Below, piece after piece: positions 1,566-45,531 of a stretch of 46,365 bases of DNA. The stretch is from Spirochaetota bacterium (lineage in GTDB: Bacteria; Spirochaetota; Spirochaetia; SPDA01; JAJSAL01): NCBI GenBank assembly GCA_024274705.1, contig JAJSAL010000044.1:1-46365 (forward strand), written 5' to 3'. Position 1 is the stretch's first letter. Every line of letters starts with the position of its first letter. The notes under the pieces are model-generated. The model searched no databases. It saw only the letters and a list, made by a program, of their open reading frames with translations, and had not been told where the DNA came from. The position numbers and the translations under genes were made by a program.

Positions 1566-1585
1566 CCGGATTTTCCCTGCGTGCT

Positions 1586-2713: not shown

Positions 2714-2719
2714 AACCCG

Positions 2720-3775: not shown

Positions 3776-3776
3776 A

Positions 3777-5063
3777 TCACACCACCTTGATACCCAGCCG
3801 TTCCTCCCTGCCCCCGGGAGGAACCGGTACTGTTCCGTTCCTGAGCCTTCGTTCTTTCCGTAAGGCCCAGGACCCGGGTAAAAACATCCCCTTCTTTCCA
3901 AATACCGGGAGTGTTCGCGTTTCAGCTCCGCCCCTGCCGGGGAACCCTGTACGGAACATGTGTATTTTCATGCCTCCGTATTTCTGAAGAACCCTCCCCA
4001 GGGTCACATCAAAAGGTGTGGAAAAAATGTACACTTCATCGGTTTCGCCGTATTCATGAGAACACCCGGGATCCGGGTGAAAAAACATGGTCCCTATCTT
4101 AAACCCCAGCTTAAGAATATCCTCTTCCTTCTCCAAGAGGGCCCTGCCGTTTCCTGTTACGATGTCGAAGAGAAAATCCGGGTTGTCCCTCTTGGTGCTC
4201 CAGAGAAAGGACATGAGCCACCGCTTCAGAAAATCCATGTGAAACACCCGCTCCCGGTTCTCTTTTACCCCTGAGCTTCCAGGTGCATCCGGGGCGAAAT
4301 GGCGGAAATCGATGTAGAGAATCTTTGTCCTTTCCTGGCTTACCGGAGAAATGCGGGTAAATACTTCTATACTCCGGCTGGAGGCCTTCCAGTTAATGTC
4401 CCGCATCCTGTCACCGGGAATGTATTCCCGCATATAGTACTTCTCTTCATCGGCATTCTTCTGCCTGGTCTTCGTTTCCATCCCGCCTTCCGCCTGTACT
4501 TCCGCAAGTTTATCCGGCAGAAGGGCCGGGAGGGCGACGGTCTTGCTCTTAAGCCTGCTGAGGAAACGGGACCGTGTGAGTCCGAAGATGTCGCCGATCC
4601 GAAACCGGACCATCAAGGTCCCGTACCCCGACAGGGGAAACCGGAGGGGCAGGAAAAGCGTTCCTTCCCCGGTGAAAGATCCCTCCCGGTACAGTCGAAG
4701 GAAGGAAGCAGCACCCACCTTTTCCCTGATAGAGAGGTGAACATGAATCCGGTAGAAGAGAAAACTTTTTGCATTACCGGTATCCACTTGAATCCCCCGG
4801 TCTGACCTCTCTGCGTAAGTATAGGGCGGTACTACCAGGGAAACTTCTCTCCGGCTGAAACGGACCGCCTGGATCCTGCCTATCACCGCCAGGACCAGGA
4901 GAACCGCCAGGGCGGTAAACGAAAGGAACAGGGCGGTGAAATTCTTTTCCGCATACCCTCTTCCCAGGAGATAGAGGGAGATCCCCAGGAGCAAGGAACC
5001 CCCAAGGGTGAATGGATAATAATAGAATACAGGTGATTCCCTAGGTGAACGGTCTTCCCTCAT
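3777..5063 (-). CDS. DUF58 family protein (vWA-like partner of MoxR) with N-terminal TM helices.
   Basis: Signature YMREYIPGDRMRDINWKASSRS, matching the DUF58 REYxxGDDxRxIDWKAxAR motif. It sits between the MoxR ATPase and the TgpA-like gene, which is the canonical arrangement. ATG confirmed at 5061-5063. Confidence 0.75.
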   Translation of the reverse strand: MREDRSPRESPVFYYYPFTLGGSLLLGISLYLLGRGYAEKNFTALFLSFTALAVLLVLAVIGRIQAVRFSRREVSLVVPPYTYAERSDRGIQVDTGNAKSFLFYRIHVHLSIREKVGAASFLRLYREGSFTGEGTLFLPLRFPLSGYGTLMVRFRIGDIFGLTRSRFLSRLKSKTVALPALLPDKLAEVQAEGGMETKTRQKNADEEKYYMREYIPGDRMRDINWKASSRSIEVFTRISPVSQERTKILYIDFRHFAPDAPGSSGVKENRERVFHMDFLKRWLMSFLWSTKRDNPDFLFDIVTGNGRALLEKEEDILKLGFKIGTMFFHPDPGCSHEYGETDEVYIFSTPFDVTLGRVLQKYGGMKIHMFRTGFPGRGGAETRTLPVFGKKGMFLPGSWALRKERRLRNGTVPVPPGGREERLGIKVV

Positions 5064-5072
5064 ACCAGGCTG

Positions 5073-6080
5073 TTATCGTTTTCCCTCCACCGGAACAGAT
5101 TCCAGCACCTCCGATAAAAACTCCGCTGCGGAACGGGTCGAATCCTGCATGACCAGGCGGTGGGCAACCGCCGGAATAAAAATCTCTTTTACCATATCAA
5201 GAGGAACATAATCCAGACCACGCACAAGAGCCAGGGCCCGGGCCAGGCGGGAAACCTTTATTCCGGCCCTGGGGCTGGCACCCATGTTCACTTCCGGGTT
5301 GTCCCTGGTCCTCCGCATACAGCTGACGATGTAGCTCACAATATCAGGATGAATTTCAATCCTGTCTACCAGTTTCTGCCAGGAGAGAAGCTCCTTTGGA
5401 GTAATGACAGGTTTAAAGCCGTCCCAGGCATTGTCCATACCGTGTTTCACTATGATTCTCGCCTCAGTTTCGGGTTCCGGGAACCCGATGGATATCTGCA
5501 GCATAAACCGGTCCAGCTGGGGAGCAGGAAGGGGAAAGAGATGAACCCCTTCAAGGTTCATGGTAGCGATGATGAAAAACGGGTCCGGGAGGACATAAGT
5601 CTTCCCTTCAATGGTGACGATCTGCTCCTGCATTGCCTGGAAAAAACTTCCCTGGGTCTTCGGCGTCAGCAGATTGATCTCATCACACAGGATAAAATGG
5701 GCGAATAAGGGCCCCTCGGTGAATATCATTTCATCAGACCTGCTTAAAAAGCGGGTGTACCCCAGAATATCCTGGGGCAGAAGGTCTACGGTACACTGAA
5801 TACGGCTGAAATCCCGTATTTTCACCCCGCCGGACGAGGCATCCATTTCAGACCACTTAATGGATCCTGCAAGCGCCCGGGCCAGTGAAGTCTTCCCTAC
5901 TCCGTGGAAATCGGCGAGGATCACGTGTCCTCCGGCGATTTTCGAAGCAATCAGGTATTCCAGCTTTCTCTGGTCTATGTAGATGATCGATTGTATGTTG
6001 TCGATAAGACTATCGATCCCGTTTTTTATCTTCTCCAGTTCCTTTGAATCCGGTATTGTTTCGAGCATAACATCCTTCAT
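5073..6080 (-). CDS. MoxR-family AAA+ ATPase.
   Basis: Walker A GVGKTSLARALAG. Walker B / sensor region ILCDEINLLTPKTQGSFFQAMQE matches the MoxR LLxDEINRAxPKTQSALLEAM signature. A possible alternative start is Met5, which has an AAGGA Shine-Dalgarno. Confidence 0.85.
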   Translation of the reverse strand: MKDVMLETIPDSKELEKIKNGIDSLIDNIQSIIYIDQRKLEYLIASKIAGGHVILADFHGVGKTSLARALAGSIKWSEMDASSGGVKIRDFSRIQCTVDLLPQDILGYTRFLSRSDEMIFTEGPLFAHFILCDEINLLTPKTQGSFFQAMQEQIVTIEGKTYVLPDPFFIIATMNLEGVHLFPLPAPQLDRFMLQISIGFPEPETEARIIVKHGMDNAWDGFKPVITPKELLSWQKLVDRIEIHPDIVSYIVSCMRRTRDNPEVNMGASPRAGIKVSRLARALALVRGLDYVPLDMVKEIFIPAVAHRLVMQDSTRSAAEFLSEVLESVPVEGKR

Positions 6081-6128: not shown

Positions 6129-7250
6129 TCATGAAGACGGTTCAATGCTTACAGGTACCAAGCCGAAATACTCCCTGTATGCATTTACCATAGCAAGGTA
6201 ATTCTCAAGAGGGACACTGGCAGTGACGGCATTACTGGCGGTAAAGATGTGACCTCCCCGGCCTTTCCCGGCTTCGATATTATCCTGTGTCAGCCGTACA
6301 ATTTCTTCCGGAGTTGAAAATGTCAGGATCGAACCGCAGTCCATACTCCCGATGAACGTGATGGTTTCTCCATACCGTTGTTTGAGCTCCTTCAGATCCA
6401 TACCGGCATTCATATCTATTTCCAGGTACCCATCCACTCCGCACCGGGTCAAAAAATCATCGATCACCGGCCATATATTCCCATCTGTGGCATTGACGGA
6501 GAACTTTCCCGCTTTGCGTATCACATCAGCGCATTTTCTCACTTCCGGAACGATAAATCTACGGTAGCATTCCGCAGAAATAAGGAGCCTGTTTCCGGCG
6601 AAATCCCCTCCGATCCCGATAAGCTCAATATTGAGCTCCACATAATCTTTGATAACGGTGAAGGCCCTTTCTGTAGCCAGAGAGAAGTGTTCCTCAGCCA
6701 CGTCCGGATCCAGCAGCATTACCTGCATCAGGTCCGCATCGGTCCAGATCCCGTGAAAATAGGCGGGAGCGAGTATCGGCATATCGATCCCCCTCCGTTC
6801 CATCTCCCTTCTCATAGTAATATAGACAAGGTACGATGACTCCGGAAATTTCCCGGTAAGCATCTCGCCAATCCGCCCATTTCTTTCCTTAAGACGCTCC
6901 ACGGGGTCACCGTTGCCGGTCACATTGAACCGGGACCCGATGTCCTTGAGCGGATCGTAATAGTACTGCTCCCGGGGAACCGGATTCGGGCTTACAAAAA
7001 GCATATCATGCCCGAGAATCTGCGCCAGGTCCAGCCTGGCGGCAGCGTATGTACTGACTGCATTCTCGAAGCCGGTCTCCTCCGCTTCCTCCAGCCACAC
7101 CGATGAATCCTCCAAATACTCGACATGGTTTCTCTTAAGAATCTTTTCTGCAAGCGCCGGGTGCAGGATGTACTCGAAGAGAGGAGTCCTGTCAGGCTCC
7201 TGGTGATTCAAAGCGGCGGTTATACGTTCCCGGGAAGACATAACGTGCAT
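6129..7250 (-). CDS. Uroporphyrinogen-decarboxylase (URO-D) fold family protein of unknown substrate. It lacks the His-x-Cys zinc motif found in its two paralogues.
   Basis: The N-terminus ERITAALNHQEPDRTPLFEY is typical of the URO-D / MtaA family. Length is 373 aa. At the position where the paralogues carry HICG it has NATDG. Confidence 0.6.
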   Translation of the reverse strand: MHVMSSRERITAALNHQEPDRTPLFEYILHPALAEKILKRNHVEYLEDSSVWLEEAEETGFENAVSTYAAARLDLAQILGHDMLFVSPNPVPREQYYYDPLKDIGSRFNVTGNGDPVERLKERNGRIGEMLTGKFPESSYLVYITMRREMERRGIDMPILAPAYFHGIWTDADLMQVMLLDPDVAEEHFSLATERAFTVIKDYVELNIELIGIGGDFAGNRLLISAECYRRFIVPEVRKCADVIRKAGKFSVNATDGNIWPVIDDFLTRCGVDGYLEIDMNAGMDLKELKQRYGETITFIGSMDCGSILTFSTPEEIVRLTQDNIEAGKGRGGHIFTASNAVTASVPLENYLAMVNAYREYFGLVPVSIEPSS

Positions 7251-7266
7251 GTCCGGATCCTCCAGC

Positions 7267-8478
7267 CTATTCGTGATAGAAATAATTGATAAGTATGTAA
7301 CTCCCGATACCCCGGAACCGGGTATCCTCCTGCCGTTCGGAAAATAACACTTTTAATGATTTGGCAACAGGCCGTAAGGTAAGATTCATGATCTCCCGTT
7401 CTATCGATTCGAAAAGGACCCTGTTCCCGTCGATCAATTCTCCCCGGAGAATGATCATCTCCGGGTTGAAGATATTGGCAACATCGGCCAGTTTACTGCC
7501 GAGGTTCGTTCCGATCCGGGTGAACAGATTGCGGGCGAAATTGTCACCGTTATTGGCAGCCGTTATGATATGATCCATCTTCAGCTTTTCCAGGTCATGA
7601 TCGCAGTGCTTCAGGATTTCACTGTGGACCCCTTTACCCAGCCCTTCCCTGGCAAGATTTATTACATACTGTTTTGAACTCACCGTCTCCAGGCAGCCGG
7701 TATGTCCGCAGTAGCAGAGTCCCCCGGCGCCAGCAATATGAGTGTGTCCCAGTTCGCCGGCATAGAAACTGCTTCCCATATAGATTTCTCCGTTGACAAC
7801 GATTCCCATACCGATCCCTTCGGAGAGCATCACGCAGAGAAAGTGGTCCACCCCGACTCCCATGCCGTAGTACTTTTCCATGAGAGCCATGGCATTGGCG
7901 TCATTCACCAGGAAGCAGGGTCGTTTATATTTCTCCTCGATAATCTGCCGGAGCGGAACATCGTACCATCCGCCGGCAAAGAGGTACTCGTGGGAAATTC
8001 CCTTATCCGGGTCGATAAAACCTCCGATGCCGATACCGATACCGAACACATTCCTCTTCATCTCCCGTGCCCGCTTCATAAGGGTATCTATACATTCATC
8101 GAGCAGCCTGAGAAGCTCCTCCTTCTGAATGCCCTGGTATGTAGCCACGGAATACTTCTCAACTTCCTCTCCCAGGATATCGATGAGGAGCGCATCCATC
8201 GAGGAAAGGCTTAAGTCAACGGCAATATTGACACCAGCCTCGGGATTCAACTCAAGGTAGACGGACTTTCTGCCTCCCGTGGAAATTCCCTGCCCGGTCT
8301 CCCGGATAAACCCCAGATCGATGAGAGCCTTTACATATTTTACGATGGACGAAAGGCTTAACTCGAGTTCCCTACACAGCCTGGACCGGGTTATCCGCTT
8401 GTGATTCAGTATTGCTTTCAGGATGGAACGCATCCTGGTTTTTTTAATACTGGAAAAACGAGAGCTGGATGAAAACAT
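7267..8478 (-). CDS. ROK-family transcriptional regulator (NagC/XylR-like).
   Basis: N-terminal wHTH followed by a ROK sugar-kinase-like domain with the zinc motif GHTHIAGAGGLCYCGHTGCLE. An alternative start is Met16 at 8431-8433. Confidence 0.8.
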   Translation of the reverse strand: MFSSSSRFSSIKKTRMRSILKAILNHKRITRSRLCRELELSLSSIVKYVKALIDLGFIRETGQGISTGGRKSVYLELNPEAGVNIAVDLSLSSMDALLIDILGEEVEKYSVATYQGIQKEELLRLLDECIDTLMKRAREMKRNVFGIGIGIGGFIDPDKGISHEYLFAGGWYDVPLRQIIEEKYKRPCFLVNDANAMALMEKYYGMGVGVDHFLCVMLSEGIGMGIVVNGEIYMGSSFYAGELGHTHIAGAGGLCYCGHTGCLETVSSKQYVINLAREGLGKGVHSEILKHCDHDLEKLKMDHIITAANNGDNFARNLFTRIGTNLGSKLADVANIFNPEMIILRGELIDGNRVLFESIEREIMNLTLRPVAKSLKVLFSERQEDTRFRGIGSYILINYFYHE

Positions 8479-8491
8479 GCTTAAGCAACCG

Positions 8492-9361
8492 TTATCCTTT
8501 TAAAGCTCCGGCGGAAATTCCGCTGATAAAATCTCTCTGCATCAGCCACATGACCAGCAGCACCGGGAAAACCACGACGCACCCCATTGCGGCCATGGGA
8601 CCCCAGATAAGTCCTTTATCCGTTATAAATCCGGCAATGATGACTGTCAGCGGCTTTGCCTTGTTTACCGTGAGAATTACAGCATAGAGAAATTCATTCC
8701 AGCTGTAAACAAAGGTAAGCATAGCCGTGGCAACCAGGCCCGCTTTTACCATGGGGGTGGTAACAAAAATAAACCGCTGAAGAAGCGAACAGCCGTCCAG
8801 CATGCTCTGCTCTTCCACCTCGTAAGGAGCTTCCGCATAAAATCCTATCATCAACAGTATGACCAGGGGCAGATTGAAGCTGGCATTCATGATGATGAGG
8901 GCGAATACACTGTCCATGAGCCGGATAGAACGTATTATGTAGAAAACCGGAACAGCTACGACCACGGCGGGATACATTTTCTGTATCAGGAACCAGCCCG
9001 CCAGGATCTGCTTGAACCGCTTCGGCAGGGCCCCGTTGATCAGGGTATATGCAGCCATACTGCCAAAGAGCGTCGTGACAATGGTAGTGCCGGCGGCAAT
9101 GAAAATTGAGTTCATCAGCCCTTTGAGCATCCCGTATTTTACTACTGCATCGGTAAAATTCTGAAATGTAATCCGTGTCGGGAATATTACAGGAGGATCC
9201 GCAAAGTACTCCTGCTCCACCTTAAAAGCGTTGGTGACAAGCCAGTAAAAAGGAAACAGAATCACAATAAAAAGAAGGATCATGACGATCACCCTGACGG
9301 GGAAGCTGAGGAAATTACTCAGATAATTGCCGCTTTTCATCAATCGTGCATCTCTTCCCAT
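8492..9361 (-). CDS. Carbohydrate ABC transporter permease (MalG-like).
   Basis: Six-TM permease with an EAA-like loop (AKPLTVIIAGFITDKG). Its start overlaps the stop of the upstream permease gene by 1 nt. Confidence 0.8.
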   Translation of the reverse strand: MGRDARLMKSGNYLSNFLSFPVRVIVMILLFIVILFPFYWLVTNAFKVEQEYFADPPVIFPTRITFQNFTDAVVKYGMLKGLMNSIFIAAGTTIVTTLFGSMAAYTLINGALPKRFKQILAGWFLIQKMYPAVVVAVPVFYIIRSIRLMDSVFALIIMNASFNLPLVILLMIGFYAEAPYEVEEQSMLDGCSLLQRFIFVTTPMVKAGLVATAMLTFVYSWNEFLYAVILTVNKAKPLTVIIAGFITDKGLIWGPMAAMGCVVVFPVLLVMWLMQRDFISGISAGALKG

Positions 9362-10278
9362 TATCCCAACCTCTTCAGCTGCCGTGTCCGTAACCGGATA
9401 AATCCCATTGCTATCAGCGACATGGAAAGAATGAAGAGGATGGCTGCCGCTGACGAGTAGCCGACCCTCAGAAACTTGATTCCCTGCCTGTAAATGTAGG
9501 TAGGCAGCATTTCCGTAGCATTACCCGGGCCCCCCTGGGTCATGACGAAAATAGTATCGAAAATCTTGAACGCATCGATAAACCTGATCATGGCAACGAT
9601 AATGATAACCGGCGCCGTAATAGGAAAAACAACCATCCTGAAAACGTTCCATGACGAAGCACCGTCAACCCTCGCGGCATCGAGAAAGCTCTTCGGTATT
9701 GCTTTTATAGATGAAAGGACAAGAATTGCGACGAAAGGAACGAACTGCCAGCAGTCAACAAAAATAATCGTATATATGGCGATCCGGTAGTCACCGAGCC
9801 AGGAAACATCGGGAAGCCCGACAATATTGAGAAGATAATTAATGATTCCATATGTCCGGTCCAGCATCATTCTCCACAATGTACCGGAAGCAACAGGAGC
9901 GATAATCATGGGTATGAGGAGGACCGTTATGAGCAGGCGGGACAATTTGTTATCATCGGATAGCATCATGGCAATGATTATTCCAACGACAACCTGGATC
10001 GATACCGAAAGGACTGCAAAAAACACGTTATTCCTGAGTGCCTGGAGAAAAAGTTCGTCCTGAAACATTCCGATATAATTCTGGAGCCCGATAAAAATGG
10101 GCCGGGGCTGCAGATTGAGCTTGTATTTGAAAAAACTCAGCACAAAACCGTACCCGAGAGGAATAAAGGCAGCCACAAGAAGGATTACGAACACCGGGAC
10201 CAGAAAGAGCCATGAATAGAGTATATCTGTTCGATCCTGGGCGATGGTACGCGAAATCAACATGAAAAGGACCTCCAA
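9361..10278 (-). CDS. Carbohydrate ABC transporter permease (MalF-like).
   Basis: Polytopic membrane protein with a permease EAA motif region (LDAARVDGASSWNVFRMVVFP). Confidence 0.8.
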   Translation of the reverse strand: MEVLFMLISRTIAQDRTDILYSWLFLVPVFVILLVAAFIPLGYGFVLSFFKYKLNLQPRPIFIGLQNYIGMFQDELFLQALRNNVFFAVLSVSIQVVVGIIIAMMLSDDNKLSRLLITVLLIPMIIAPVASGTLWRMMLDRTYGIINYLLNIVGLPDVSWLGDYRIAIYTIIFVDCWQFVPFVAILVLSSIKAIPKSFLDAARVDGASSWNVFRMVVFPITAPVIIIVAMIRFIDAFKIFDTIFVMTQGGPGNATEMLPTYIYRQGIKFLRVGYSSAAAILFILSMSLIAMGFIRLRTRQLKRLG

Positions 10279-10346
10279 AAAAGGGGTCAGACCACTCTAT
10301 TATGAACAGTCCAACCCCACAATATCAATGACAGCAGGCGCTCTCT

Positions 10347-11645
10347 CTACCTGCCGGTATTCTTGACCCCCTGGGGCGGCGGATAATCCGAAAGGATTTT
10401 ACCTAAACCGTCCGCCATGAAGGATACCGCTTTATCCATGTTCCACTGACCGGTTACGAAGTTAGCTACGGAATCCCGGATAACCGCTTCGGCCATTGTT
10501 CCGGCAGGAATTCTCCACCAGATGATCGCTCCCCTCTCTGAAGCTTCTTTGTGGGGATACAGCTTGCTGTTTTTTACCTCAGGCTTATTCCATACGGAGA
10601 TTCTCGACGGAAGTATGGAGTAGTCCACAAAGTTCTGCAGCTGCTTTTCCTTGCTTGTATAGAATTTTATCCATTCCCATGCAGCGTCCTTATTCTTTGC
10701 TGCTTTCGGTATCCCCATGTCCCAGGAAGAAAGCACGGTAACGCCGTTTTTTGCGAAAGGAATCGGTGCAATCGCCCATTTCCCTACAACCTTGGATTTC
10801 TCAGGGTCATCCCCGTTGGGAGCAATGGTAAGGGTCGGCCAGGAAAATGCAATGGCTGCGTTGCCCTGAAGGAAAGCGGCATCGGACTCAGGCAGTCCCC
10901 ATGACGGAGCAGCCGGATCGGCATAATCGAACCACTTCTTCACGATAGTGAGGGCTTCCCTGGTCTCCGGGGAGTCGATGGTCAGGTTCCAGTTTTCGTC
11001 GGCCCACCTGCCGCCCAATGACCATTGTACCATCATCCAGAGTCCGCTCAACTGCTCCTTCACACCGGGAATAGCAACAGCGTAGAACTTATTGACGGGA
11101 TCGTGGAGGCTGTCACAAATTGCGAAGAACTCGTCCCATGTCTGGGGAAACGTATCGATTAAATCGGTCCGGTACGCCAGTGTTTGCGGGGTGTTTGAGA
11201 ATGGAATTCCCATAATCTTGCCGGCCCACTTCCCGGACTGCTCCCAGAGCCCCGGGAGAATATCCCCGGAATCCCAGTTATCACGTTCTATATACGGTTT
11301 TAAATCAACCATATAGGGTTCGAACTCACCGTCCCATTGGCATGCGGGGGTCACCACATCATAGGTGGAATCTCCCGTGGACAGGGCAAGACCCATTTTC
11401 TCATACAGGGTGATGTACGGAAAATCCACAACCTCAAGCTCTATTCCTGTCTTATCCTTGAACTCGGATGCATACTCTTTCGCCGCATCTGCATACGTCG
11501 CTGAAAAATACAACACCGTCACCTTCTGGCCTGCATAGGGTTTCCCCTCTTCCGCTGCAGCAGGGGCTTCCTTTTGCCCTCCCGCAAAAACACCGAACAC
11601 TGCCGAAGTAAGCAGCACCAGGGTCAGTAGCCCAATCTTCTTCAT
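10347..11645 (-). CDS. ABC transporter extracellular solute-binding protein (sugar-binding family 1).
   Basis: Signal peptide MKKIGLLTLVLLTSAVFGVFAGG. It is ~430 aa and sits in an operon with two permeases. Confidence 0.8.
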   Translation of the reverse strand: MKKIGLLTLVLLTSAVFGVFAGGQKEAPAAAEEGKPYAGQKVTVLYFSATYADAAKEYASEFKDKTGIELEVVDFPYITLYEKMGLALSTGDSTYDVVTPACQWDGEFEPYMVDLKPYIERDNWDSGDILPGLWEQSGKWAGKIMGIPFSNTPQTLAYRTDLIDTFPQTWDEFFAICDSLHDPVNKFYAVAIPGVKEQLSGLWMMVQWSLGGRWADENWNLTIDSPETREALTIVKKWFDYADPAAPSWGLPESDAAFLQGNAAIAFSWPTLTIAPNGDDPEKSKVVGKWAIAPIPFAKNGVTVLSSWDMGIPKAAKNKDAAWEWIKFYTSKEKQLQNFVDYSILPSRISVWNKPEVKNSKLYPHKEASERGAIIWWRIPAGTMAEAVIRDSVANFVTGQWNMDKAVSFMADGLGKILSDYPPPQGVKNTGR

Positions 11646-11700
11646 TTTTCACTCCTTTTATTATAGCGCTGGAATGGTGCGATTATACAGTAGCCCCTTG

Positions 11701-11713
11701 CTCTTGTCAAGAG
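11701..11713. promoter_or_regulatory. Perfect palindrome CTCTTG-T-CAAGAG in the divergent intergenic region, a candidate operator (possibly for the ROK regulator).
   Basis: Read directly from the sequence. It lies between the divergently transcribed SBP gene and the URO-D/AGE operon. Confidence 0.3.
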
Positions 11714-11758
11714 TTAATGTAAATATTACATAATGTTAAGATGTGAAGGTCTATATTA

Positions 11759-11787
11759 TTGACATATTACTAAATATGACCAATAAT
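11759..11787 (+). promoter_or_regulatory. Candidate sigma70 promoter TTGACA-17-AATAAT for the URO-D-fragment / AGE / URO-D operon.
   Basis: Hexamers read directly. They lie ~40 nt upstream of the ATG at 11827, which has an AAGAGGAAG Shine-Dalgarno. Confidence 0.35.
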
Positions 11788-11826
11788 ATACAATCTTACC
11801 ATAATAATATTATCAAGAGGAAGTAC

Positions 11827-12447
11827 ATGGGTGACACGGGATTCATTCGTATCGAAAACGCTCTGTTAAAGAAACCGAACTACCGTATCCCCTGCTTTCC
11901 CCTGATAGATGCGGCCTTCGCATCATCCTGCAGCGCAGGGATCAGGTTTGCCTGGATCGGGGAAGGGTTAGGTTCCGGAAGTCTTATTTCACCGGAACAG
12001 TACAAGGAGTTTGTTCTCCCCTTCGAGAAGATAATAGCTGATCGTTTTCGCAGCCAAGGTGTGTTAACCTTTCTCCATATTTGCGGCAACACTACGAACG
12101 CCCCTACATATATCGCCCGTTCCGGTGTTGACGGTTTCGATCTGGATTATCCTGTCGATATAACCGTGGCTGTCGATGCCCTCTACCCGGAAATCACGAT
12201 CAAAGGGAATATCAATCCCGGTTTATTCCTGCCCGGCAGATCAGAGGAGTTGGAACGTGCATGCAGAGACACTATTGCAGTTGCGAAAAATCTGAACAAC
12301 TTTATCTTTTCAACAGGCTGTCTCGTGCCCAGAGATTCCTCGAAGGAAGCCTTTTACACGATGCAGGATCATGTAGTTTACAATAGAAGGAGTAGGTCTT
12401 ATGGATATCAAGCGAATAGAAGAGTTGACGACCCGGTTTTACCGTGA
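11827..12447 (+). CDS. Truncated URO-D/MtaA-like protein. Only the C-terminal ~200 residues of the fold are present; it retains the zinc-ligand-like HICG and GC motifs.
   Basis: LTFLHICGNT and FSTGCLVP correspond to the MtaA/CmuA His-x-Cys...Cys zinc motif. The N-terminal ~130 residues of the fold have no counterpart upstream, where the sequence is an AT-rich promoter. A good Shine-Dalgarno precedes the ATG at 11827. Confidence 0.55.
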   Translation: MGDTGFIRIENALLKKPNYRIPCFPLIDAAFASSCSAGIRFAWIGEGLGSGSLISPEQYKEFVLPFEKIIADRFRSQGVLTFLHICGNTTNAPTYIARSGVDGFDLDYPVDITVAVDALYPEITIKGNINPGLFLPGRSEELERACRDTIAVAKNLNNFIFSTGCLVPRDSSKEAFYTMQDHVVYNRRSRSYGYQANRRVDDPVLP

Positions 12448-13645
12448 TCTGGTGGAGGACACACTTCCTTTCTGGATAAAAAACGGAATTGACCGCACCT
12501 ACGGCGGTTATACGACCTTCCTGGACAGGAAGGGGGAGATGTTGAGTACTCATAAGCCTATGTGGGTGATGGGCCGGTTCGCATGGCTCCTCGCCAGGTT
12601 ATACAATACTCTCGAAGCACGGGAGGAGTGGCTGGAGCTGGCACAACACGGAATAGCCTTTATCCGTAAATACGGGTTCGATAATGACGGCCGGATGTTT
12701 TATGCAGTCGAACAGGACGGAAGACCTATCCGAAAAAGAAGATACCTGTTCACGGAAACCTTCGGCGTCATCGCCCTGGCAGAATACGCCAGGGCTGCAG
12801 GAGATAAAGATGCATTTGCTTTGGCTGAAAAAACGATGGGACTGATCCTGGAATTCTACAACGATCCCTCCAGGCTCGAAGCGAAATTCCTTCCGGATAA
12901 TTACTCGGTGAGAGATCACTCCACGGCCATGATTCAAATCAACACTCTGCAGGTTCTCAGAAGCGCTGCAATAGCTCTGGAAGAGAACGTTGAAATCGAA
13001 GGGTACGGCGATTATCAAAGTCTCATAGATCATGCAATTGATGAGATATTTTCCTATTTCGTAAAGCCTGAAAAAAAAGCAGTGCTGGAAACTGTCGGTC
13101 TCCAGGGGGAGTACTTAGGCTCAATCCCCGAAGGGCGCTGCATCAACCCCGGGCATCCCATAGAAACCGCATGGTTCATCATGGAAGAGGGAAAACACAG
13201 AAACGATGCCGAACTGATCAGGAAAGCTCTCCCCCTCCTCGAATGGTCCCTGGACCGGGGGTGGGATACGGAATACGGCGGTTTATTCTACTTCGTCGAT
13301 ATCGAAGGCCGGCAGCCGGTACAACTGGAGTGGGATATGAAATTATGGTGGCCTCACAATGAAGCGATATACGCCACCATTCTCGCATATTCCTTAACAG
13401 GTGAGGACAAGTTCGAAAAATGGTTCGAAAAACTCTATGAGTGGTCCCTCACACGGTTTCCGGACAGGGAATATGGTGAATGGATCGGATATCTTCACCG
13501 GGATGGAAGCCCTGCACTGGATATGAAAGGTAATTACTTTAAAGGCCCCTTCCACCTTCCCAGGCAGCAGCTTAACTGCTGCCTTCTGATGAAAGGAATG
13601 CAGGAAAAGGGAGGGAGAGAGCCCGGCTTGAGAACCGAAACATGA
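12401..13645 (+). CDS. N-acylglucosamine 2-epimerase (AGE) family protein, covering the cellobiose/mannose/sulfoquinovose epimerase-isomerase family.
   Basis: The motifs YGGYTTFLDRKGE...KPMWVMGRFAWLLARLYN are typical of the AGE family (alpha6/alpha6 barrel). The Shine-Dalgarno is GAAGGAG. Confidence 0.8.
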   Translation: MDIKRIEELTTRFYRDLVEDTLPFWIKNGIDRTYGGYTTFLDRKGEMLSTHKPMWVMGRFAWLLARLYNTLEAREEWLELAQHGIAFIRKYGFDNDGRMFYAVEQDGRPIRKRRYLFTETFGVIALAEYARAAGDKDAFALAEKTMGLILEFYNDPSRLEAKFLPDNYSVRDHSTAMIQINTLQVLRSAAIALEENVEIEGYGDYQSLIDHAIDEIFSYFVKPEKKAVLETVGLQGEYLGSIPEGRCINPGHPIETAWFIMEEGKHRNDAELIRKALPLLEWSLDRGWDTEYGGLFYFVDIEGRQPVQLEWDMKLWWPHNEAIYATILAYSLTGEDKFEKWFEKLYEWSLTRFPDREYGEWIGYLHRDGSPALDMKGNYFKGPFHLPRQQLNCCLLMKGMQEKGGREPGLRTET

Positions 13646-14658
13646 CTTCCCTGGAACGCACCAGGAGGGCCATCAGAGGCGAACCGGTAGATCACATACC
13701 TTTTTTCCCCATTTCTCTTGCAAGCACCTGCCGGATCATGGGAGTTAAACAGCGATGCTTCTCCCTCGAACCGGAGGTCATGGCTGAAACCCTTATCAGG
13801 TTCCGCGAGAGGATCGGCTGCGACGGTATTTATGTCTCCAGGGATAACTGGGTGTACCACCAGGCCCTGGGAGGCGAAGTGGTATTTCCCGAAGATGCCG
13901 AATCCTTTGCGGAAGAGACTGTTCTGCAGCGGATAGGAGGGTTTAACAAGCTTTCCATCCCCGAACCATGGAACTCGCCGGGGATGAATACGGTGCTCAC
14001 CGCCGCCCGGATGGTCGTGGATGCCCTGGGTGATAGTTATTACATCCAGGCGAATATAGATACCGGTCCATTCAGTCTAGGAGGTGTTCTTCTTGGTGCG
14101 GAGAGGTTCCTTCATACTATCGTATCCGAAAAGGAAGCTGAGGTTCAAAAGTTTCTGGAATTCTGTACAGATGTCGTAGTTGCGTATGGAAAGGCGATGA
14201 TTGAAACCGGGGTACACGGTATCCAGTTCGGAGACTCCCTTGCCAGCTTGTTAGGAGCGGAACACTTTAAACAATTTGCACTTCCATGGGAACAGGAAGC
14301 GGCAAACAGGCTTGGGAATCGTAATTGTGACATATGGATTCATATTTGCGGTAAAACCGACCAGTTTCTGCACCTTCTTCGGAAGGTAAACATACAGGGA
14401 TTCGAAGTTGATGCGAAAGTTCCCATGACGCTTGCCAGAGAACTCCTGGGAAAGGAAATCGCCCTTAAAGGGAACTTGGATACCACGTTTCTCCTCCAGG
14501 CAACGTCACAAGCAGTGTACAAGACTGCGCTGGATATATTACGCAGCGGCGGGTTCAAAACAGGTGTCATTATGTCTCCAGGATGCGGAGTACCACGTAT
14601 GACCCCAACGGAAAATCTCCTTGCTATCCGGCAGGCATGTAAAGACTACACGGTATAA
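13642..14658 (+). CDS. URO-D/MtaA-like protein (methyltransferase-fold, zinc-motif-containing), full length.
   Basis: N-terminus RTRRAIRGEPVDHIPFFP, plus IWIHICGKT (H-x-C) and a C-terminal SPGCGVP, as in corrinoid:CoM methyltransferase MtaA/MtbA. Its start overlaps the AGE stop (ATGA). Confidence 0.7.
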   Translation: MTSLERTRRAIRGEPVDHIPFFPISLASTCRIMGVKQRCFSLEPEVMAETLIRFRERIGCDGIYVSRDNWVYHQALGGEVVFPEDAESFAEETVLQRIGGFNKLSIPEPWNSPGMNTVLTAARMVVDALGDSYYIQANIDTGPFSLGGVLLGAERFLHTIVSEKEAEVQKFLEFCTDVVVAYGKAMIETGVHGIQFGDSLASLLGAEHFKQFALPWEQEAANRLGNRNCDIWIHICGKTDQFLHLLRKVNIQGFEVDAKVPMTLARELLGKEIALKGNLDTTFLLQATSQAVYKTALDILRSGGFKTGVIMSPGCGVPRMTPTENLLAIRQACKDYTV

Positions 14659-14708: not shown

Positions 14709-14736
14709 TTGACTTTATCAGGTAACCATGTATAAT
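14709..14736 (+). promoter_or_regulatory. Strong sigma70 promoter TTGACT-16-TATAAT for the secreted repeat protein gene.
   Basis: The -35 hexamer is at 14709-14714 and a perfect TATAAT is at 14731-14736, ~80 nt upstream of the ATG at 14819. Confidence 0.6.
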
Positions 14737-14818: not shown

Positions 14819-15715
14819 ATGAGAAAAACACTTCTGATTACTGTAATCGTCTTTCTGACCATCTCCGGTCTGGTATTCGGCCAGCAGAAAAAAATCTACA
14901 ACGACGGAGAAATCGATTATGTCCCTATGTCTGCAAAATTCGTCCTGGATGCCCAGGATGACGAATCTTCTCTCAAGGAGATCCAGTATTCTGTGGACGG
15001 CGGACCGATCAAGACGTACACAGAACCCATCTCTTTTTCCACAGAAGGGCGCCATGTTATCGCTTACAGAGCCATCGATCAAACGGGAAACATCTCGAAC
15101 GAAACCTTCTACTCATGTATTGTCGACGCAACTCCACCGATTATCAGCGTATCCGCCAACGGGCCTGCATATGTGCTGAATGACAAGGCATATTTAACCA
15201 GTAAAACCTCGATCATTCTTTCAGCGGAAGACGATCTTTCCGGACTGTCCGCAATCTATGTCAGCCTTGACGGCGGCAGCTATATCCGGTACACCGGTGC
15301 CGCGTTTATCACCGAGGAGGGAGTGCATATCGGGAAAGCCTATGCCATGGACAATGTAGGGAACAAAACGAAAACATACATCGTGGAGGGGGTTATCGAC
15401 AACACGCCTCCCCGTGTATCGATCATGCCGAAAGAACGTCTTATCAATATGCAGGGCAGTAAATACACCAGTTCCACCAATCAGTTCTCCATCAGTGCAT
15501 CCGACGTAACTTCCGGGGTCAAGGAAATCCTGGTTTCCATAGACAGGGGGGAATACTTCACCTATGTGGAACCCTTCAAGATCCAGAAACCCGGTTTTCA
15601 TTCTATCCGCGCAAAAGCGTCGGACTACCTGGATAATGTATCCAGCGTTACCGAGCTTACCTTCAATGTAGATGTAAACAAGCCGAAAGCAAATCTGCAG
15701 ACGGTTATCGAATAA
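14819..15715 (+). CDS. Secreted protein with three tandem ~70-aa Ig-like beta-sandwich repeats (CHB_HEX_C-like / OmpL47-type).
   Basis: Signal peptide MRKTLLITVIVFLTISGLVFGQ. The three repeats share the pattern Y-S/V-[LV]DGG...Y...[FI].....G.H.....A.D..GN (IQYSVDGGPIKTY.., IYVSLDGGSYIRY.., ILVSIDRGEYFTY..). Confidence 0.7.
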   Translation: MRKTLLITVIVFLTISGLVFGQQKKIYNDGEIDYVPMSAKFVLDAQDDESSLKEIQYSVDGGPIKTYTEPISFSTEGRHVIAYRAIDQTGNISNETFYSCIVDATPPIISVSANGPAYVLNDKAYLTSKTSIILSAEDDLSGLSAIYVSLDGGSYIRYTGAAFITEEGVHIGKAYAMDNVGNKTKTYIVEGVIDNTPPRVSIMPKERLINMQGSKYTSSTNQFSISASDVTSGVKEILVSIDRGEYFTYVEPFKIQKPGFHSIRAKASDYLDNVSSVTELTFNVDVNKPKANLQTVIE

Positions 15716-15746
15716 CAGTCCACCATTCCATCCGTCATCCAGGCCC

Positions 15747-15789
15747 GGCTTTCCGGTCACGATTCTTTTGTGACGGGAAAGCCTTTTTT
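15747..15789 (+). terminator. Rho-independent terminator after the secreted repeat protein gene.
   Basis: GGCTTTCCGGTCAC-(9 nt loop)-GTGACGGGAAAGCC forms a 14-bp stem with one mismatch, followed by TTTTTT. Confidence 0.75.
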
Positions 15790-15799
15790 AATGAATAAA

Positions 15800-15811
15800 T
15801 GGCACTTGCCA
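15800..15811. promoter_or_regulatory. Palindrome TGGCA-CT-TGCCA upstream of the SPFH operon, a candidate regulator-binding site. A possible -10 TATACT lies at 15837-15842.
   Basis: Read directly. It is not a sigma54 promoter, because the -24 and -12 spacing is wrong. Confidence 0.25.
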
Positions 15812-15876
15812 TCTGTATTTTCAATGCAATCAGTTCTATACTATGATTAGTGATACCGTGTAAACAGGAGGAATAT

Positions 15877-16893
15877 ATGGGTTTGTGGGATAAAGTCAAA
15901 GGTCAGCTTCGTTCGGTCATTCAATGGGAAAACCCATCACCGGATGCCTTGTTCGAACGGTGGACAGACCGTGGTGACGAGATAAAAAACGCTTCAAAAC
16001 TGATCGTAGGCCCCGGGCAGGGGTGTATCTTTATATATGAAGGGAGGGTGGAAGCCATCCTGATGGAAGAAGGTATCACCGACCTTTCCACCGAGAATAT
16101 ACCCTTCTGGACCACCATCTCCAATTTCATGCAGGCCTTCGAAAGTGAACATAAAGTAGGAATCTACTTTTTCCGGCGGACCAAATTCCTGGACCAGAAG
16201 TGGGGAACCCCTTCGGTAGTCAAGTACGAAGATCCGAAGTACAAATTTCCCGTTGGTCTTCGGAGCTTCGGCAACTATACCTTCAGGATAACCGAACCGG
16301 GAGCTTTTTTCGTGAATGTAGTCGGCGGGAGTACCGTATTTTCAGTCGGCGACCTTCGTCAGGTGCTGAATGCCAGGATCATCCAGAATCTTACCGACTA
16401 TATCGCCGAAGCGAAATTCAGCTACGCGGACATCGACGCGAACCGTGAAGAGCTTGCCGCAGGGATTCATGCGAAGATCGCTCCGGAATTTGTAAAACTC
16501 GGCTTTGAAATAAACGACTTCCGTATAGAAGGAACGAGCTTCGACGAAGACACCATGAAGAGGATCAACCGGATTGCGGATATGTCCGCAGAAGCCCAGG
16601 CCGCCCGTGCGGTGGGCCTCGACTATGCACAGATGCAGCAGTTGGAAGCTATGCGGGATGCGGCAAAGAACGAAGGCGGTGCCGCCGGCATGGGCATGTC
16701 CATGGGGGCCGGTCTCCAGTTCGGCCAGATGATGGCTGGATCCATGGCAGGCACACCCCAGCAGTCCCAGGGGAAGGGTTCCGCGCCGGATCCCGTGGAA
16801 AAGCTTAAGAAACTTAAAGTTATGCTGGACTCGGACCTGATCAGCCAGGCGGAGTACGATGAGAAGAAAAAAGAGATCTTAGGCTCGATGTAG
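15877..16893 (+). CDS. Soluble SPFH (band-7/stomatin-like) domain protein with a C-terminal SHOCT domain.
   Basis: Start taken at MGLWDKV, which follows an AGGAGG Shine-Dalgarno. The SPFH-like core is followed by a Gly/Met/Ala-rich linker and the C-terminal KLKKLKVMLDSDLISQAEYDEKKKEIL, which matches the SHOCT motif. Confidence 0.75.
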   Translation: MGLWDKVKGQLRSVIQWENPSPDALFERWTDRGDEIKNASKLIVGPGQGCIFIYEGRVEAILMEEGITDLSTENIPFWTTISNFMQAFESEHKVGIYFFRRTKFLDQKWGTPSVVKYEDPKYKFPVGLRSFGNYTFRITEPGAFFVNVVGGSTVFSVGDLRQVLNARIIQNLTDYIAEAKFSYADIDANREELAAGIHAKIAPEFVKLGFEINDFRIEGTSFDEDTMKRINRIADMSAEAQAARAVGLDYAQMQQLEAMRDAAKNEGGAAGMGMSMGAGLQFGQMMAGSMAGTPQQSQGKGSAPDPVEKLKKLKVMLDSDLISQAEYDEKKKEILGSM

Positions 16894-16913
16894 TCATCGC
16901 AGAGGTAAAAACC

Positions 16914-18725
16914 ATGATTAAACCCGGTAAACTCAAAAAGCTTTTCATAGTTCTCCTTATTCTCCTTTTCATATTCGGCACCGTATATGTATTCGCCCGG
17001 GCCGGTGGAGCCGGCGGAGGCAGAAGCAGCGGAGGAAGCGGCGGAGGTGATGGAGGCGCTGTCATCTTCTGGGTAATCATGCTGATGGTTCAAACTATCG
17101 GCCCCATCCCCACTGCCATCGTCGTTATCGTTGCCCTCATCCTTTTATCGGTCTTCGGTAAAAAGATGAAAGCCCAGTCACCTATGAAAAACCTGCACAT
17201 ACCTGAAAAACCGGCGGCCCAGGTGCGGGGGTACAAGGATTTTATCCGGTACAATCCCGGCTTTGACGAGGATGCATTTAAAAAGAAAGTGTCCTCCGCC
17301 TTTACCGCCATTCAGAACGCATGGTCCACCATGAACCTTTCCGGGGTACGACGTTACATATCAGACGGTGTATACCAGCGGTTCACTACCCAGTTCACCA
17401 TGATGAAACTGCTGAAGCAGCGGAATCCCATCGACAACATCAGGATTCACAGTGTAACTATAGTTAAATTCGAGACCGACGGAAGGTACGACAGCGTTGA
17501 CGTTGCGATAAAGGCGACTATGCGGGACAAATTCGTATGTGAAACCAATCATTCACTGGATTCTCCGGGAGGTGACGAGACATTTACCGAATTCTGGTCT
17601 TTCTTAAAGAAACGGGGTATAGAGGAAAAAGATATCTATTCGTCAAATTCCTGTCCCAACTGCTCTGCCCCTCTCCAGGAAGATATGGGTGAAATCGGGA
17701 AATGCGGCTATTGCGGCGTCATGGTCAACAGCGGTGAGTTCGACTGGGTGCTGTCGGAGATCACCCAGGCTGACGACTACTTCAAAGGAACAGCCCTGCA
17801 GAAAGCACAGAACCTCCATGGAAAGATACAGGCCCTTATCGAGGAGTACGAAGATTTCTCCGTCCAGCTCCTGGAAGACAAGGCAAGCAACGGGTATCTC
17901 CAGATACAGACTGCAATGGTACAACAGGACCCCGCCGTTATGAGGAGGTTTGTCACCGATGAAGCGTACGAAAAACTGAAAAGCCGGATTCCCGACAGGC
18001 CCATCGTATTCAACCGCCTGTTCTTAAACGATGTTTCCCTTATCGGGGCCAGTAAAGAAGAGAACCGGAGCATCCTCTTAGTGTCGGTGACACTCTCGTA
18101 CCAGCGGGTACTCCTTAAAGAAAACGGTAAAGCCGATATCATCGACCCATCAATCATTTCCCGGCCGGAGGTAATGGTCCTCCAGCGGGAAGCATACGCC
18201 GGCGAAACCAAGGGTTCTCTTTACAGTCACACCTGCCCGAGTTGCGGCGGGTCCGTACAGGATTCCCTGGATTTAAACTGTACATTCTGCGGAGTTCCCC
18301 TTAACAGCGAAAAAAGCGAGTGGATCATTGCGGACATCATGTCCATGGTTGAATACAGAAGCTATTTTCAGGAGAAGCGCAAAGGGCTGGATATAAAGGT
18401 CAGCCCGGACCTGATGGACAGCCTTTTTGAAGTGAAAGATTATGCTCTGAACAACGTGATGGTTATGATAGGTGCAGACGGCATCTTCGCGGAAGAAGAG
18501 AAAAGCTTTGCCCGGAGTATGGCCCGGAAATGGGGGTTCAACGCCGCACGGATTACTCCCCTCTTCGATCTTGCAAAAAGCGGCAGGCTCTCCATAAAGA
18601 TGCCTTCGGATCCGAACAAGAGGAGGGCGATCTACAAGCTCATGGTCAAGGCGGCAGAGGCGGACCAGGACGTCTCCCGGGAGGAAAAAGACCTTCTCGC
18701 ATTCGTAGAAAAAGAGTACCTTTAG
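16914..18725 (+). CDS. Membrane-anchored multidomain protein with two N-terminal TM helices flanking a Gly-rich loop, then two tandem units of (Tim44-like/NTF2-like domain + C4 zinc ribbon), then a C-terminal TerB-like domain.
   Basis: TM helices LFIVLLILLFIFGTVYVF and PIPTAIVVIVALILLSVF. Zinc ribbons CPNCSAPL...CGYCG and CPSCGG...CTFCG. The C-terminal MVMIGADGIFAEEEKSFARSMA...AIYKLMVKAAEADQDVSREEKDLL resembles the TerB helical repeats. The Tim44-like assignment is tentative. Confidence 0.6.
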   Translation: MIKPGKLKKLFIVLLILLFIFGTVYVFARAGGAGGGRSSGGSGGGDGGAVIFWVIMLMVQTIGPIPTAIVVIVALILLSVFGKKMKAQSPMKNLHIPEKPAAQVRGYKDFIRYNPGFDEDAFKKKVSSAFTAIQNAWSTMNLSGVRRYISDGVYQRFTTQFTMMKLLKQRNPIDNIRIHSVTIVKFETDGRYDSVDVAIKATMRDKFVCETNHSLDSPGGDETFTEFWSFLKKRGIEEKDIYSSNSCPNCSAPLQEDMGEIGKCGYCGVMVNSGEFDWVLSEITQADDYFKGTALQKAQNLHGKIQALIEEYEDFSVQLLEDKASNGYLQIQTAMVQQDPAVMRRFVTDEAYEKLKSRIPDRPIVFNRLFLNDVSLIGASKEENRSILLVSVTLSYQRVLLKENGKADIIDPSIISRPEVMVLQREAYAGETKGSLYSHTCPSCGGSVQDSLDLNCTFCGVPLNSEKSEWIIADIMSMVEYRSYFQEKRKGLDIKVSPDLMDSLFEVKDYALNNVMVMIGADGIFAEEEKSFARSMARKWGFNAARITPLFDLAKSGRLSIKMPSDPNKRRAIYKLMVKAAEADQDVSREEKDLLAFVEKEYL

Positions 18726-31777: not shown

Positions 31778-31787
31778 GATCAACTCC

Positions 31788-33026: not shown

Positions 33027-33101
33027 GAGAAGGTACTCATCGGAATCCGCTAAGGGGGTCAATATATTATACGCCGAAAAACGCACACCATCCTCCAGGA
33101 T

Positions 33102-33147
33102 AAAAAAAGCGTGCCGCTTGATCGTCGATTGACCATGCAAGCGGCAC
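33102..33147 (-). terminator. Rho-independent terminator (minus strand) ending the MarR-methyltransferase operon.
   Basis: Perfect 10-bp stem GTGCCGCTTG/CAAGCGGCAC with a 17-nt loop, followed on the minus strand by TTTTTTT (AAAAAAA at 33102-33108 on plus). Confidence 0.65.
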
Positions 33148-33294
33148 AACAGGAACCAGTTGGCTTCACACCATCCTAGTCGTGGCAGCCTGCGACAACA
33201 GAAGAAATTTTTGCACAGCATTGGGCTGTTTTCTTCTTATCAGCTGCTTTTTTGCGAATGAGTGTCTTCATTAGAAGCTCCTTTCTCACCGGTT

Positions 33295-39293: not shown

Positions 39294-39304
39294 AGTACCT
39301 GTCC

Positions 39305-45523: not shown

Positions 45524-45531
45524 ACAAGGAG

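Follow-up and report, generated by a model that had tools for sequence, protein, structure and literature searches.

A conserved sugar-uptake cassette with URO-D/MtaA-fold paralogues in Spirochaetota, and the sugar-linked clade around its zinc-site protein

The 46,365-nucleotide contig JAJSAL010000044.1 of a Spirochaetota bacterium (assembly GCA_024274705.1), called the window below, carries at 6129–14658 a divergently transcribed sugar locus. Its eight genes, established from the open reading frame (ORF) listing and from Pfam and NCBIfam matches, lie where an initial annotation made from the sequence alone had placed them. The locus is a conserved, probably co-regulated amino-sugar cassette in which a CUT1-type ATP-binding cassette (ABC) importer, a NagC-like repressor and a member of the AGE (N-acylglucosamine 2-epimerase) family accompany paralogues of the uroporphyrinogen decarboxylase (URO-D) fold. 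Around one of these paralogues, URO-D2, we delimit a large clade that is tied to sugar genes, keeps the zinc site of B12-dependent methyltransferases and has lost the linkage to a B12 carrier. It is an uncharacterised, widespread, context-defined clade of known fold, with a real chance of a new enzyme activity.

Organisation and conservation of the cassette

The minus strand carries the transporter operon. Its first gene encodes a family-1 extracellular solute-binding protein (SBP; 10347..11645; SBP_bac_1, 136 bits) with a lipoprotein-like N-terminus, and is followed by two CUT1-type permeases of the BPD_transp_1 family, permease 1 (9361..10278; conserved among the cassettes) and permease 2 (8492..9361; 65–88% identity across orthologous cassettes), by a ROK-family protein (7267..8478) and, as the last gene, by URO-D3 (6129..7250; 373 aa; PF01208 64 bits, C-terminal half only). 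The plus-strand genes begin 181 bp from the SBP start with URO-D1 (11827..12447; 206 aa), for which the PF01208 match on the ORF 11743/11827–12447 scores 85 bits and covers profile positions 203–341 only. There follow the AGE-family epimerase (12401..13645; Pfam GlcNAc_2-epim, PF07221, 167 bits) and URO-D2 (13642..14658; 338 aa), an MtaA-like TIM barrel that matches PF01208 over its full length at 196 bits. The proposal of a sugar-uptake locus with a ROK protein, an SBP, two permeases and an AGE epimerase was thus borne out by Pfam for all of these genes.

The SBP and both permeases are the parts of a CUT1 importer present in the locus, and the window contains no ATPase gene. CUT1 systems commonly share an ATPase encoded at another site, and a MalK gene occurs in two sister-clade loci (L048 and L064). 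The best match of the SBP in the PDB is 5iai, a sugar SBP without assigned ligand, so that the PDB matches provide no clue to the ligand. Between the SBP gene and the first permease gene, a terminator-like scan returned a stem-loop of 15 pairs followed by a T-run (10283..10318, minus strand; a consensus match only). It looks like an intra-operon attenuator or stabiliser, the type of element that gives an excess of SBP transcript in ABC operons.

The ROK protein consists of an N-terminal winged helix-turn-helix and a ROK domain (Pfam ROK, 177 bits, and HTH_24). The kinase motif DxGxT is replaced by AVDLSLSS and the ROK zinc motif is retained as CYCGHTGC (CxCGxxGC type); the protein is therefore a NagC/Mlc-like repressor and not a kinase. 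With NCBIfam NagC it scores 221 bits (cut-off 650), and the equivalog cut-offs of NagC and Mlc are both unreached. The shared control region (11646..11826) holds back-to-back sigma-70-like promoters. On the minus strand TTGACA starts at 11710 and, after a 17-nt spacer, TATAAT ends at 11682; on the plus strand TTGACA lies at 11759 and, again after 17 nt, AATAAT ends at 11787. The two divergent sites score 12/12 and 11/12 in the promoter scan. An inverted repeat, TATATTATTG-N19-CAATAATATA, overlies the plus-strand promoter at 11752–11790 and is a candidate ROK operator. Divergent TTGACA boxes are kept in the equivalent intergenic region of most orthologous loci. Promoters, repeat and conserved boxes together fit co-regulation of the two arms, without amounting to proof of it.

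Judged by its sequence, the AGE protein is of the true N-acylglucosamine 2-epimerase type, with N-acetylglucosamine (GlcNAc) and N-acetylmannosamine (ManNAc) as predicted substrates; it scores 346 bits with the NCBIfam AGE model, short of the equivalog cut-off of 600, and 72 bits with the cellobiose epimerase model. It matches PDB entry 8bry at E 5e-110 and also 2GZ6 and 1FP3. The residues aligned to R57, H239, E242, E308 and H372 of Anabaena AGE (2GZ6), which we take to be the catalytic ones, are conserved. A similar association is found in the Bacteroides nanLET genes with RokA, where an AGE-family 2-epimerase with conserved catalytic residues likewise shares an amino-sugar locus with a ROK-family protein. 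In contrast to such nan loci, the present one has no sialate lyase and no kinase, its ROK protein is a repressor without ATP motif, and its URO-D proteins are without nan counterpart.

A profile scan with URO-D2, using one genome per species, yielded 27 loci, nearly all from metagenome-assembled genomes (MAGs) of Spirochaetota, with a few from Victivallales, Bacteroidota, Planctomycetota and Latescibacterota. The cassette recurs in about 20 of these 27 independent genome loci and hence the co-location is not due to chance. To count individual genes, all ORFs, called mechanically, of the 26 loci of at least 6 kb with a URO-D2 orthologue were matched to the window proteins. The SBP was present in 20/26, the permeases and URO-D3 each in 19/26, AGE in 17/26, the ROK protein in 16/26 and URO-D1 in 12/26. 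In one metagenome contig the entire gene set stands in a row on a single strand. Another locus (L116) combines two adjacent URO-D genes and AGE with an MFS transporter and a LacI regulator, which marks the URO-D genes and AGE as the recurring partners, irrespective of the transport system. Homology searches for the cassette returned uncultured sequences only, and no cultured carrier was found.

Zinc site and descent of the URO-D proteins

URO-D2 shares the motifs HICG and PGCG with MtaA (PDB 4AY7), and the alignment matches them residue for residue, which places the zinc triad of URO-D2 at H234 (14341–14343), C236 (14347–14349) and C315 (14584–14586). The triad is invariant among 23 orthologues. 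The initial annotation had read HICG and C-terminal G-C zinc motifs in URO-D2 and URO-D1, and both readings hold: URO-D1 of the window keeps HICG and STGC, and the URO-D1 family keeps the zinc ligands. It had also considered the third protein to be substituted at these positions. In agreement with this, URO-D3 has Ala, Asp and Asn at the three zinc-ligand positions, with NATDG in place of the HICG of its relatives; it shows in addition a HemE-like GGHIFTASNA motif. The URO-D/MtaA TIM-barrel fold is common to the URO-D proteins of the locus, and the zinc ligands are found in URO-D2 and the URO-D1 family and not in URO-D3. URO-D3 is conserved as strongly as URO-D2. Pairwise identities among the three paralogues are 22–29%, which indicates that the paralogues are old.

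All three proteins match PF01208, as had been claimed; 11827–12447, however, is a deletion remnant and not a complete protein. Compared with eight orthologues of 342–351 aa, URO-D1 of the window is short of about 140 interior residues; the deletion is clean and in frame, with its junction between S34 and C35 (near nt 11928/11929). Its stop is displaced and the read-through tail overlaps the AGE start by 47 nt. The retained part is 67% similar to the closest relative, the same level as for the neighbouring genes, which leaves a recent event, a tolerated one or an artefact of assembly to account for the deletion. URO-D1 is wholly missing from five cassettes (L016, L020, L021, L030 and L031), from which it follows that it is dispensable. 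In the source genome it may be decaying, and the deletion itself may be an assembly artefact.

With TIGR01464 (hemE; equivalog cut-off 302.95 bits) URO-D2 scores 73.8, URO-D1 39.0 and URO-D3 18.5 bits, and the motif PxWxMRQAGR, which we take from PROSITE to be the substrate-binding motif of HemE, is absent from the N-termini of all three translations. An ordinary haem-pathway URO-D, or unrelated genes adjoining a sugar operon by chance, is suggested by the Pfam family name and by D68 of URO-D2, which aligns with the catalytic Asp of HemE; it is refuted by these scores and the missing motif, by a window free of haem genes, and by a cassette conserved over about 20 loci and several phyla. With TIGR01463 (MtaA/CmuA; cut-off 235.4 bits) the scores are 151.8 for URO-D2, 69.2 for the URO-D1 remnant, 62.5 for URO-D3 and 87.0 for a full-length URO-D1 orthologue (from L001). 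The assignment to the MtaA/CmuA branch stands as regards zinc ligands and ancestry, and fails as regards the family cut-off and, within the gene neighbourhoods, a corrinoid partner. Both labels, ‘uroporphyrinogen decarboxylase’ and ‘MtaA/CmuA family methyltransferase’, are probably wrong for these genes.

The URO-D2 orthogroup is narrow, with only two 50%-identity clusters at or above 47% identity in an exhaustive search of representatives. Beyond it lie subfamilies at 33–37%, then 74 clusters at E ≤ 1e-30 and 1083 at E ≤ 1e-10, and all listed relatives retain the zinc triad. Three of them at 27–29% identity (P0348, P0385 and P0389; 818–961 aa) are MtaA-like URO-D domains fused to Fer2 and to RACo, which reductively activates corrinoid enzymes. 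Scanning metagenomes with the sister subfamilies added 80 further loci. The neighbours of the near relatives are SBP, permeases, MalK, AGE, ROK and paralogues like URO-D1 and URO-D3, together with GFO/IDH/MocA dehydrogenases, DegT aminotransferases, LacI regulators and xylose-isomerase-like barrels. A tblastn search of a plasmid collection found relatives of at most 26% identity only, some of them beside cobalamin-dependent proteins. Among the proteins that accompany the sugar-linked URO-D genes, ‘c3’ (about 390 aa; L064:6300–7487 and homologues) has no sequence match in Pfam or the PDB and aligns with the URO-D2 profile at 96.7% hhalign probability, which makes it another divergent URO-D paralogue. 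A second protein, ‘c1’ (about 428 aa; e.g. L040:1913–3196), has no detectable homology; it precedes the URO-D gene in L040, L046, L048 and L053 and has homologues in five more loci.

Corrinoid partners were sought by comparing every stop-to-stop ORF within at most 10 kb on each side of the URO-D gene with a MetH B12-binding domain query, validated by its hits, and with a hidden Markov model built from these hits. Loci counted as sugar-linked when their URO-D scored 160 bits or more against URO-D2 (51 loci with 664 kb of flanks), and a distant set comprised 18 loci (171 kb). No B12-binding ORF was found in the gene neighbourhoods of the 51 sugar-linked loci. In the distant set, whose URO-D proteins are relatives at 24–29% identity, corrinoid proteins stood directly beside URO-D in 10/18 loci, which served as a positive control for the screen. 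The difference is significant by Fisher's test (p 1.3e-7), with the reservation that the loci are not phylogenetically independent. RACo was likewise absent from the 51 loci and found only among the distant ones; an apparent match in L025 proved to be merely the Fer2 domain of an NqrF-like protein. The Pfam-annotated neighbourhoods of the cassette loci contained no corrinoid protein either. The rest of the 46-kb window holds no corrinoid protein, activase, pterin methyltransferase or haem gene, and an Rfam scan of it gave no cobalamin riboswitch or other element at gathering score.

In a rough neighbour-joining tree on 340 columns all sugar-linked sequences fall into a single clade of 70 leaves, which is nested among the corrinoid-linked loci, MtaA and the RACo fusions. 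When bootstrapped with capped distances (60 replicates), the clade was exactly monophyletic in 44/60 trees and free of corrinoid-linked leaves in 51/60. The sample of about 70 sequences stems from Spirochaetota, Victivallales, Bacteroidota, Planctomycetota, Latescibacterota, Anaerolineales and unbinned metagenome contigs. The His-Cys-Cys triad is present in 100% of the 70 members, as in the methyltransferase relatives, and N138, D140 (an inserted residue), H192, G197 and C175 are conserved in the clade but not in the corrinoid-linked relatives. URO-D2 itself carries N138, D140 and H192. Three of the clade-specific positions fall at or adjoin the model strands 134–139 and 193–197; the active-site face of a TIM barrel lies at the C-terminal ends of its strands. 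Sequence comparison shows the sugar-linked clade as descending from corrinoid-dependent methyltransferases, with new polar residues gained beside the zinc site. It lends moderate support to one evolutionary transition, in which a lineage would have lost its genomic link to corrinoid carriers and activases and become linked to sugar genes.

Possible reactions of the zinc-site clade

We tentatively favour, with low confidence, a reading of the locus as a ROK-repressed divergon for the uptake and conversion of a modified N-acetylhexosamine by zinc-centred dealkylation, likely an O-demethylation, without a dedicated corrinoid protein. The ABC system would import this sugar, most likely an N-acetylhexosamine that bears an O-methyl group. 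The zinc site of URO-D2 would then hold a substrate heteroatom (O or S), as leaving group or as acceptor of a small alkyl group, and the alkyl group would be handed to tetrahydrofolate, as in MetE, to a thiol or to some other acceptor that is not a dedicated corrinoid protein. The sugar thereby released, ManNAc or GlcNAc, would be interconverted by AGE for housekeeping catabolism, and the zinc-less URO-D3 might act as an accessory or second-step enzyme.

That no member of the clade has lost the zinc site speaks for a conserved metal chemistry. Precedents for such sites are those binding coenzyme M in MtaA, homocysteine in MetE and methanol in MtaB, the latter of another fold; MetE, from the same superfamily, demonstrates that methyl transfer is possible without a corrinoid. 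URO-D2 is 15% identical to MetE (cobalamin-independent methionine synthase), which differs in having two barrels, a defined site for folate and a thiol as its substrate. AGE is the only other catabolic enzyme of the operon, and this fits a pathway in which the sugar is imported, loses a small substituent, is epimerised and enters housekeeping GlcNAc catabolism.

In five Spirochaetaceae MAGs URO-D2 lies downstream of MetF (methylene-tetrahydrofolate reductase) genes, which are of two types, 38% identical. In one case they stand with MetV, a NiFe hydrogenase, a pterin-binding methyltransferase and FolD, and in another with HdrA/MvhD. The Pterin_bind gene adjoins URO-D2 in this single MAG and is absent elsewhere among the cassette loci. 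The MetF adjacency gives a weak hint of folate as the alkyl acceptor.

Several points weigh against the favoured reading. Its methyl component would be drawn only from ancestry and from retention of the zinc site, URO-D2 is no more than 24% identical to MtaA, and all NCBIfam scores are under the family cut-offs. To our knowledge there is no folate site in a single URO-D barrel, and we know of no precedent for cleaving an alkyl methyl ether without Co(I). Zn(Cys2His) also activates water or alkoxides, as in beta-carbonic anhydrase, cytidine deaminase and alcohol dehydrogenase. The MetF adjacency is confined to one family of related MAGs and is perhaps inherited synteny. Corrinoid proteins may be encoded elsewhere in these genomes, the screen having covered gene neighbourhoods. 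Finally, outside the spirochaetes URO-D2 orthologues of 48–63% identity occupy other glycan contexts, beside rhamnosidases, LarA, GH20, a GlmA-like GH35 and a sulfatase, so that the substrate is not necessarily a hexosamine. In Victivallaceae the neighbours are a heparinase-II/III-like protein, GH20, GlmA-like GH35 and the sulfatase, and in Victivallales DUF4434 (twice) and GH20. A Bacteroidetes MAG (L033, 8896–16165) has, in a row, an IU-nucleoside hydrolase, the URO-D2 orthologue, LarA, a second URO-D and a GH106 rhamnosidase, and a Cytophagia MAG (L028) has Fe-ADH, DUF2961, an MFS sugar transporter and a rhamnosidase.

The initial annotation had offered demethylation or methyl transfer on O-methylated sugars. 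As it was then worded, this is not upheld: demethylation of methylated sugars stays an inference from ancestry, and the classical corrinoid mechanism is disfavoured because the corrinoid partners, by which all characterised methyl-transfer systems of this branch are defined, are lacking in the 51 clade loci. Its remark that the substrate chemistry is undescribed agrees with our full-text searches, which found no literature on URO-D proteins in sugar loci.

Extended to the whole clade, the favoured chemistry would define a new class of corrinoid-independent zinc enzymes that cleave ethers, demethylating or dealkylating sugars under anoxia with direct transfer of the methyl group to tetrahydrofolate or a thiol; we regard this as improbable. 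Glycans of algae, plants, microbes and invertebrates commonly contain sugars that are O-methylated or etherified in other ways. The only sugar demethylase that we found, the cytochrome P450 that demethylates 6-O-methyl-D-galactose in a glycan-utilisation locus of marine aerobes (PMC10033563), needs oxygen, and how anaerobic glycan degraders of sediments and guts handle such sugars is apparently undescribed. Fold, cofactors and oxygen requirement all separate that enzyme from URO-D2, to which it would be a hypothetical functional analogue. If the extension were true, the clade would correspond, in anaerobes, to the P450 sugar demethylases and would have arisen from B12-dependent methyltransferases that lost their carrier. 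Whichever the reaction, it would be a new activity for the URO-D/MtaA fold and a case of a cofactor-dependent family re-used without its cofactor protein.

Nearly as likely, and likewise held with low confidence, is that after loss of the corrinoid partner the zinc site has been turned to other chemistry, the clade members being hydratases, isomerases, epimerases, deacylases or beta-keto-acid decarboxylases acting on sugars or amino sugars, with zinc as Lewis acid or water activator. The complete absence of corrinoid protein and RACo from the clade neighbourhoods speaks for this, as do the polar, clade-specific N138, D140 and H192 beside the metal site and the strong conservation of the zinc-less URO-D3. 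The proteins are constantly paired with epimerases and mutarotase-like proteins (AGE, LarA, DUF4432, Aldose_epim), of which AGE is the sole other catabolic enzyme in the operon, and the GFO/IDH/MocA, DegT and xylose-isomerase-like partners of the sister subfamilies are typical of keto-sugar pathways. However, His-Cys-Cys persists in 70/70 clade members just as in the methyltransferases, which argues for conserved metal chemistry, no characterised member of the URO-D/MetE superfamily carries out such reactions, and the data name no specific one. A novel decarboxylation, the alternative that the initial annotation had added to demethylation, gained no specific support.

A classical corrinoid O-demethylase, with URO-D1, URO-D2 and URO-D3 as methyltransferases I and II (MT I and MT II) and with the carrier, activase and folate methyltransferase shared and encoded elsewhere, is unlikely. 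MtaA is the closest characterised homologue, the hosts are anaerobes, and one complete MAG has a pterin-binding methyltransferase, MetVF and FolD directly upstream of URO-D2. It is also established that in methanogens MtaA and MtbA are encoded apart from their corrinoid proteins. The three MtaA-like paralogues per cluster resemble moreover the type 1 mlp clusters, in which several deeply diverged MtaA-like paralogues of unresolved function occur together in anaerobic bacteria (Kountz and Balskus, PMC10418091). The partners in our loci are instead an ABC sugar importer, a ROK repressor and AGE, and corrinoid protein and RACo are lacking, as is a cobalamin riboswitch in the window. Bacterial corrinoid methyltransferases are usually co-located with their carrier (PMC10418091), and a B12-binding ORF was seen in 0/51 of the clade loci as against 10/18 of the distant ones.

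Comparison with the characterised systems leads to a similar picture. The methylcobamide:coenzyme M methyltransferases MtaA and MtbA (TIGR01463; 4AY7) act in methanogens, whereas the host here is a bacterial fermenter; URO-D2 differs from them by its sugar-uptake operon with AGE, by the want of an adjoining corrinoid partner and by the additional N138/D140/H192 signature. Three-component anaerobic O-demethylases and the Cdm chloromethane system consist of a UroD-fold MT I, a corrinoid protein, MT II and an activase (PMC13222342). Their MT I, a TIM barrel of the fold shared by URO-D2 and in some cases zinc-containing, takes the methyl group off a heteroatom under anoxia. It does so from aryl methyl ethers or methyl halides and always with a corrinoid protein, the carrier that is missing here. 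Such a system would have MT I encoded together with a corrinoid protein, a pterin-binding MT II and an activase; the locus has the UroD-fold proteins only, and URO-D2 gave no significant sequence match to the solved structures of this group.

Very unlikely, finally, is the cleavage of a lactyl (1-carboxyethyl) ether such as that of N-acetylmuramic acid from peptidoglycan necromass, whereby deprotonation at C2 of the AGE type would lead to beta-elimination and the remaining steps to GlcNAc/ManNAc and D-lactate would fall to the URO-D proteins. AGE deprotonates C2, as the etherase MurQ is established to do, and circumstantial evidence comes from PIG-L and GH20 in some contexts, from an M28 peptidase within the cassette at five loci and from the LarA gene between two URO-D genes in L033, which encodes a bona fide Ni-dependent lactate racemase (641 bits, cut-off 460). 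Yet LarA occurs in one organism only and beside a rhamnosidase, and L-lactaldehyde or lactate derived from rhamnose explains it equally well. Both Bacteroidota contexts are rhamnose loci, in which lactaldehyde/lactate metabolism accounts for LarA and for the Fe-ADH that accompanies a rhamnosidase in L028, and the fold offers no mechanistic precedent.

Neighbouring genes

Two sets of C1-folate genes adjoin the cassette in Spirochaetaceae MAGs (1–9800 of L002/L009 and the upstream regions of L006, L010 and L013). The first comprises FolD, a pterin-binding methyltransferase, a NiFe (Hox-type) hydrogenase and MetV-MetF; the second consists of MetF, a 1576-aa HdrA-like protein and MvhD. These genes suggest an acetogen-type methyl branch in these spirochaetes. 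The M28-family peptidase gene lies between URO-D2 and URO-D3 or beside the permeases in L007, L027, L012, L014 and L035, a hint that the substrate of some lineages bears an amino-acid or acyl group.

Among the orthologous loci the cassette has no further widely conserved neighbour. The MoxR/Bat-like operon directly downstream of URO-D3 (window 333–6080, minus strand), which does not stand beside the cassette in other loci, is therefore unrelated. It encodes MoxR AAA_3 (5073–6080), a DUF58 protein (3777–5063), a 393-aa protein of no named family (2720–3901), a transglutaminase-like protein with DUF4129 (1586–2713) and a BamB/PQQ-like beta-propeller (333–1817), all on the minus strand.

On the other side, URO-D2 is followed on the plus strand (14819–18725) by an Ig-like repeat protein (14819–15715), an SPFH/Band7 and SHOCT protein (15850–16893) and a Tim44-like and TerB-like protein (16914–18725); a consensus promoter-like site lies at 14709–14736. 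Further along the plus strand, 19251–23372 encodes a 1373-aa protein with two BcrAD_BadFG ATPase stretches and DUF2229, of the ‘CoA enzyme activase’ type typical of strict anaerobes. Two sets of 2-oxoacid:ferredoxin oxidoreductase subunits are found on opposite strands (35790–38244, plus; 38748–41105, minus), and a pantothenate/CoA cluster at 41362–46308 comprises panB, an S58 (DmpA-like) peptidase, panE, an M20 peptidase and a type III pantothenate kinase. The gene at 30494–31945 (minus strand) joins a thioredoxin domain to a flavoprotein resembling thioredoxin reductase, and a mechanically called radical SAM protein ORF (31788–33221, minus strand) overlaps this fusion by 158 nt.

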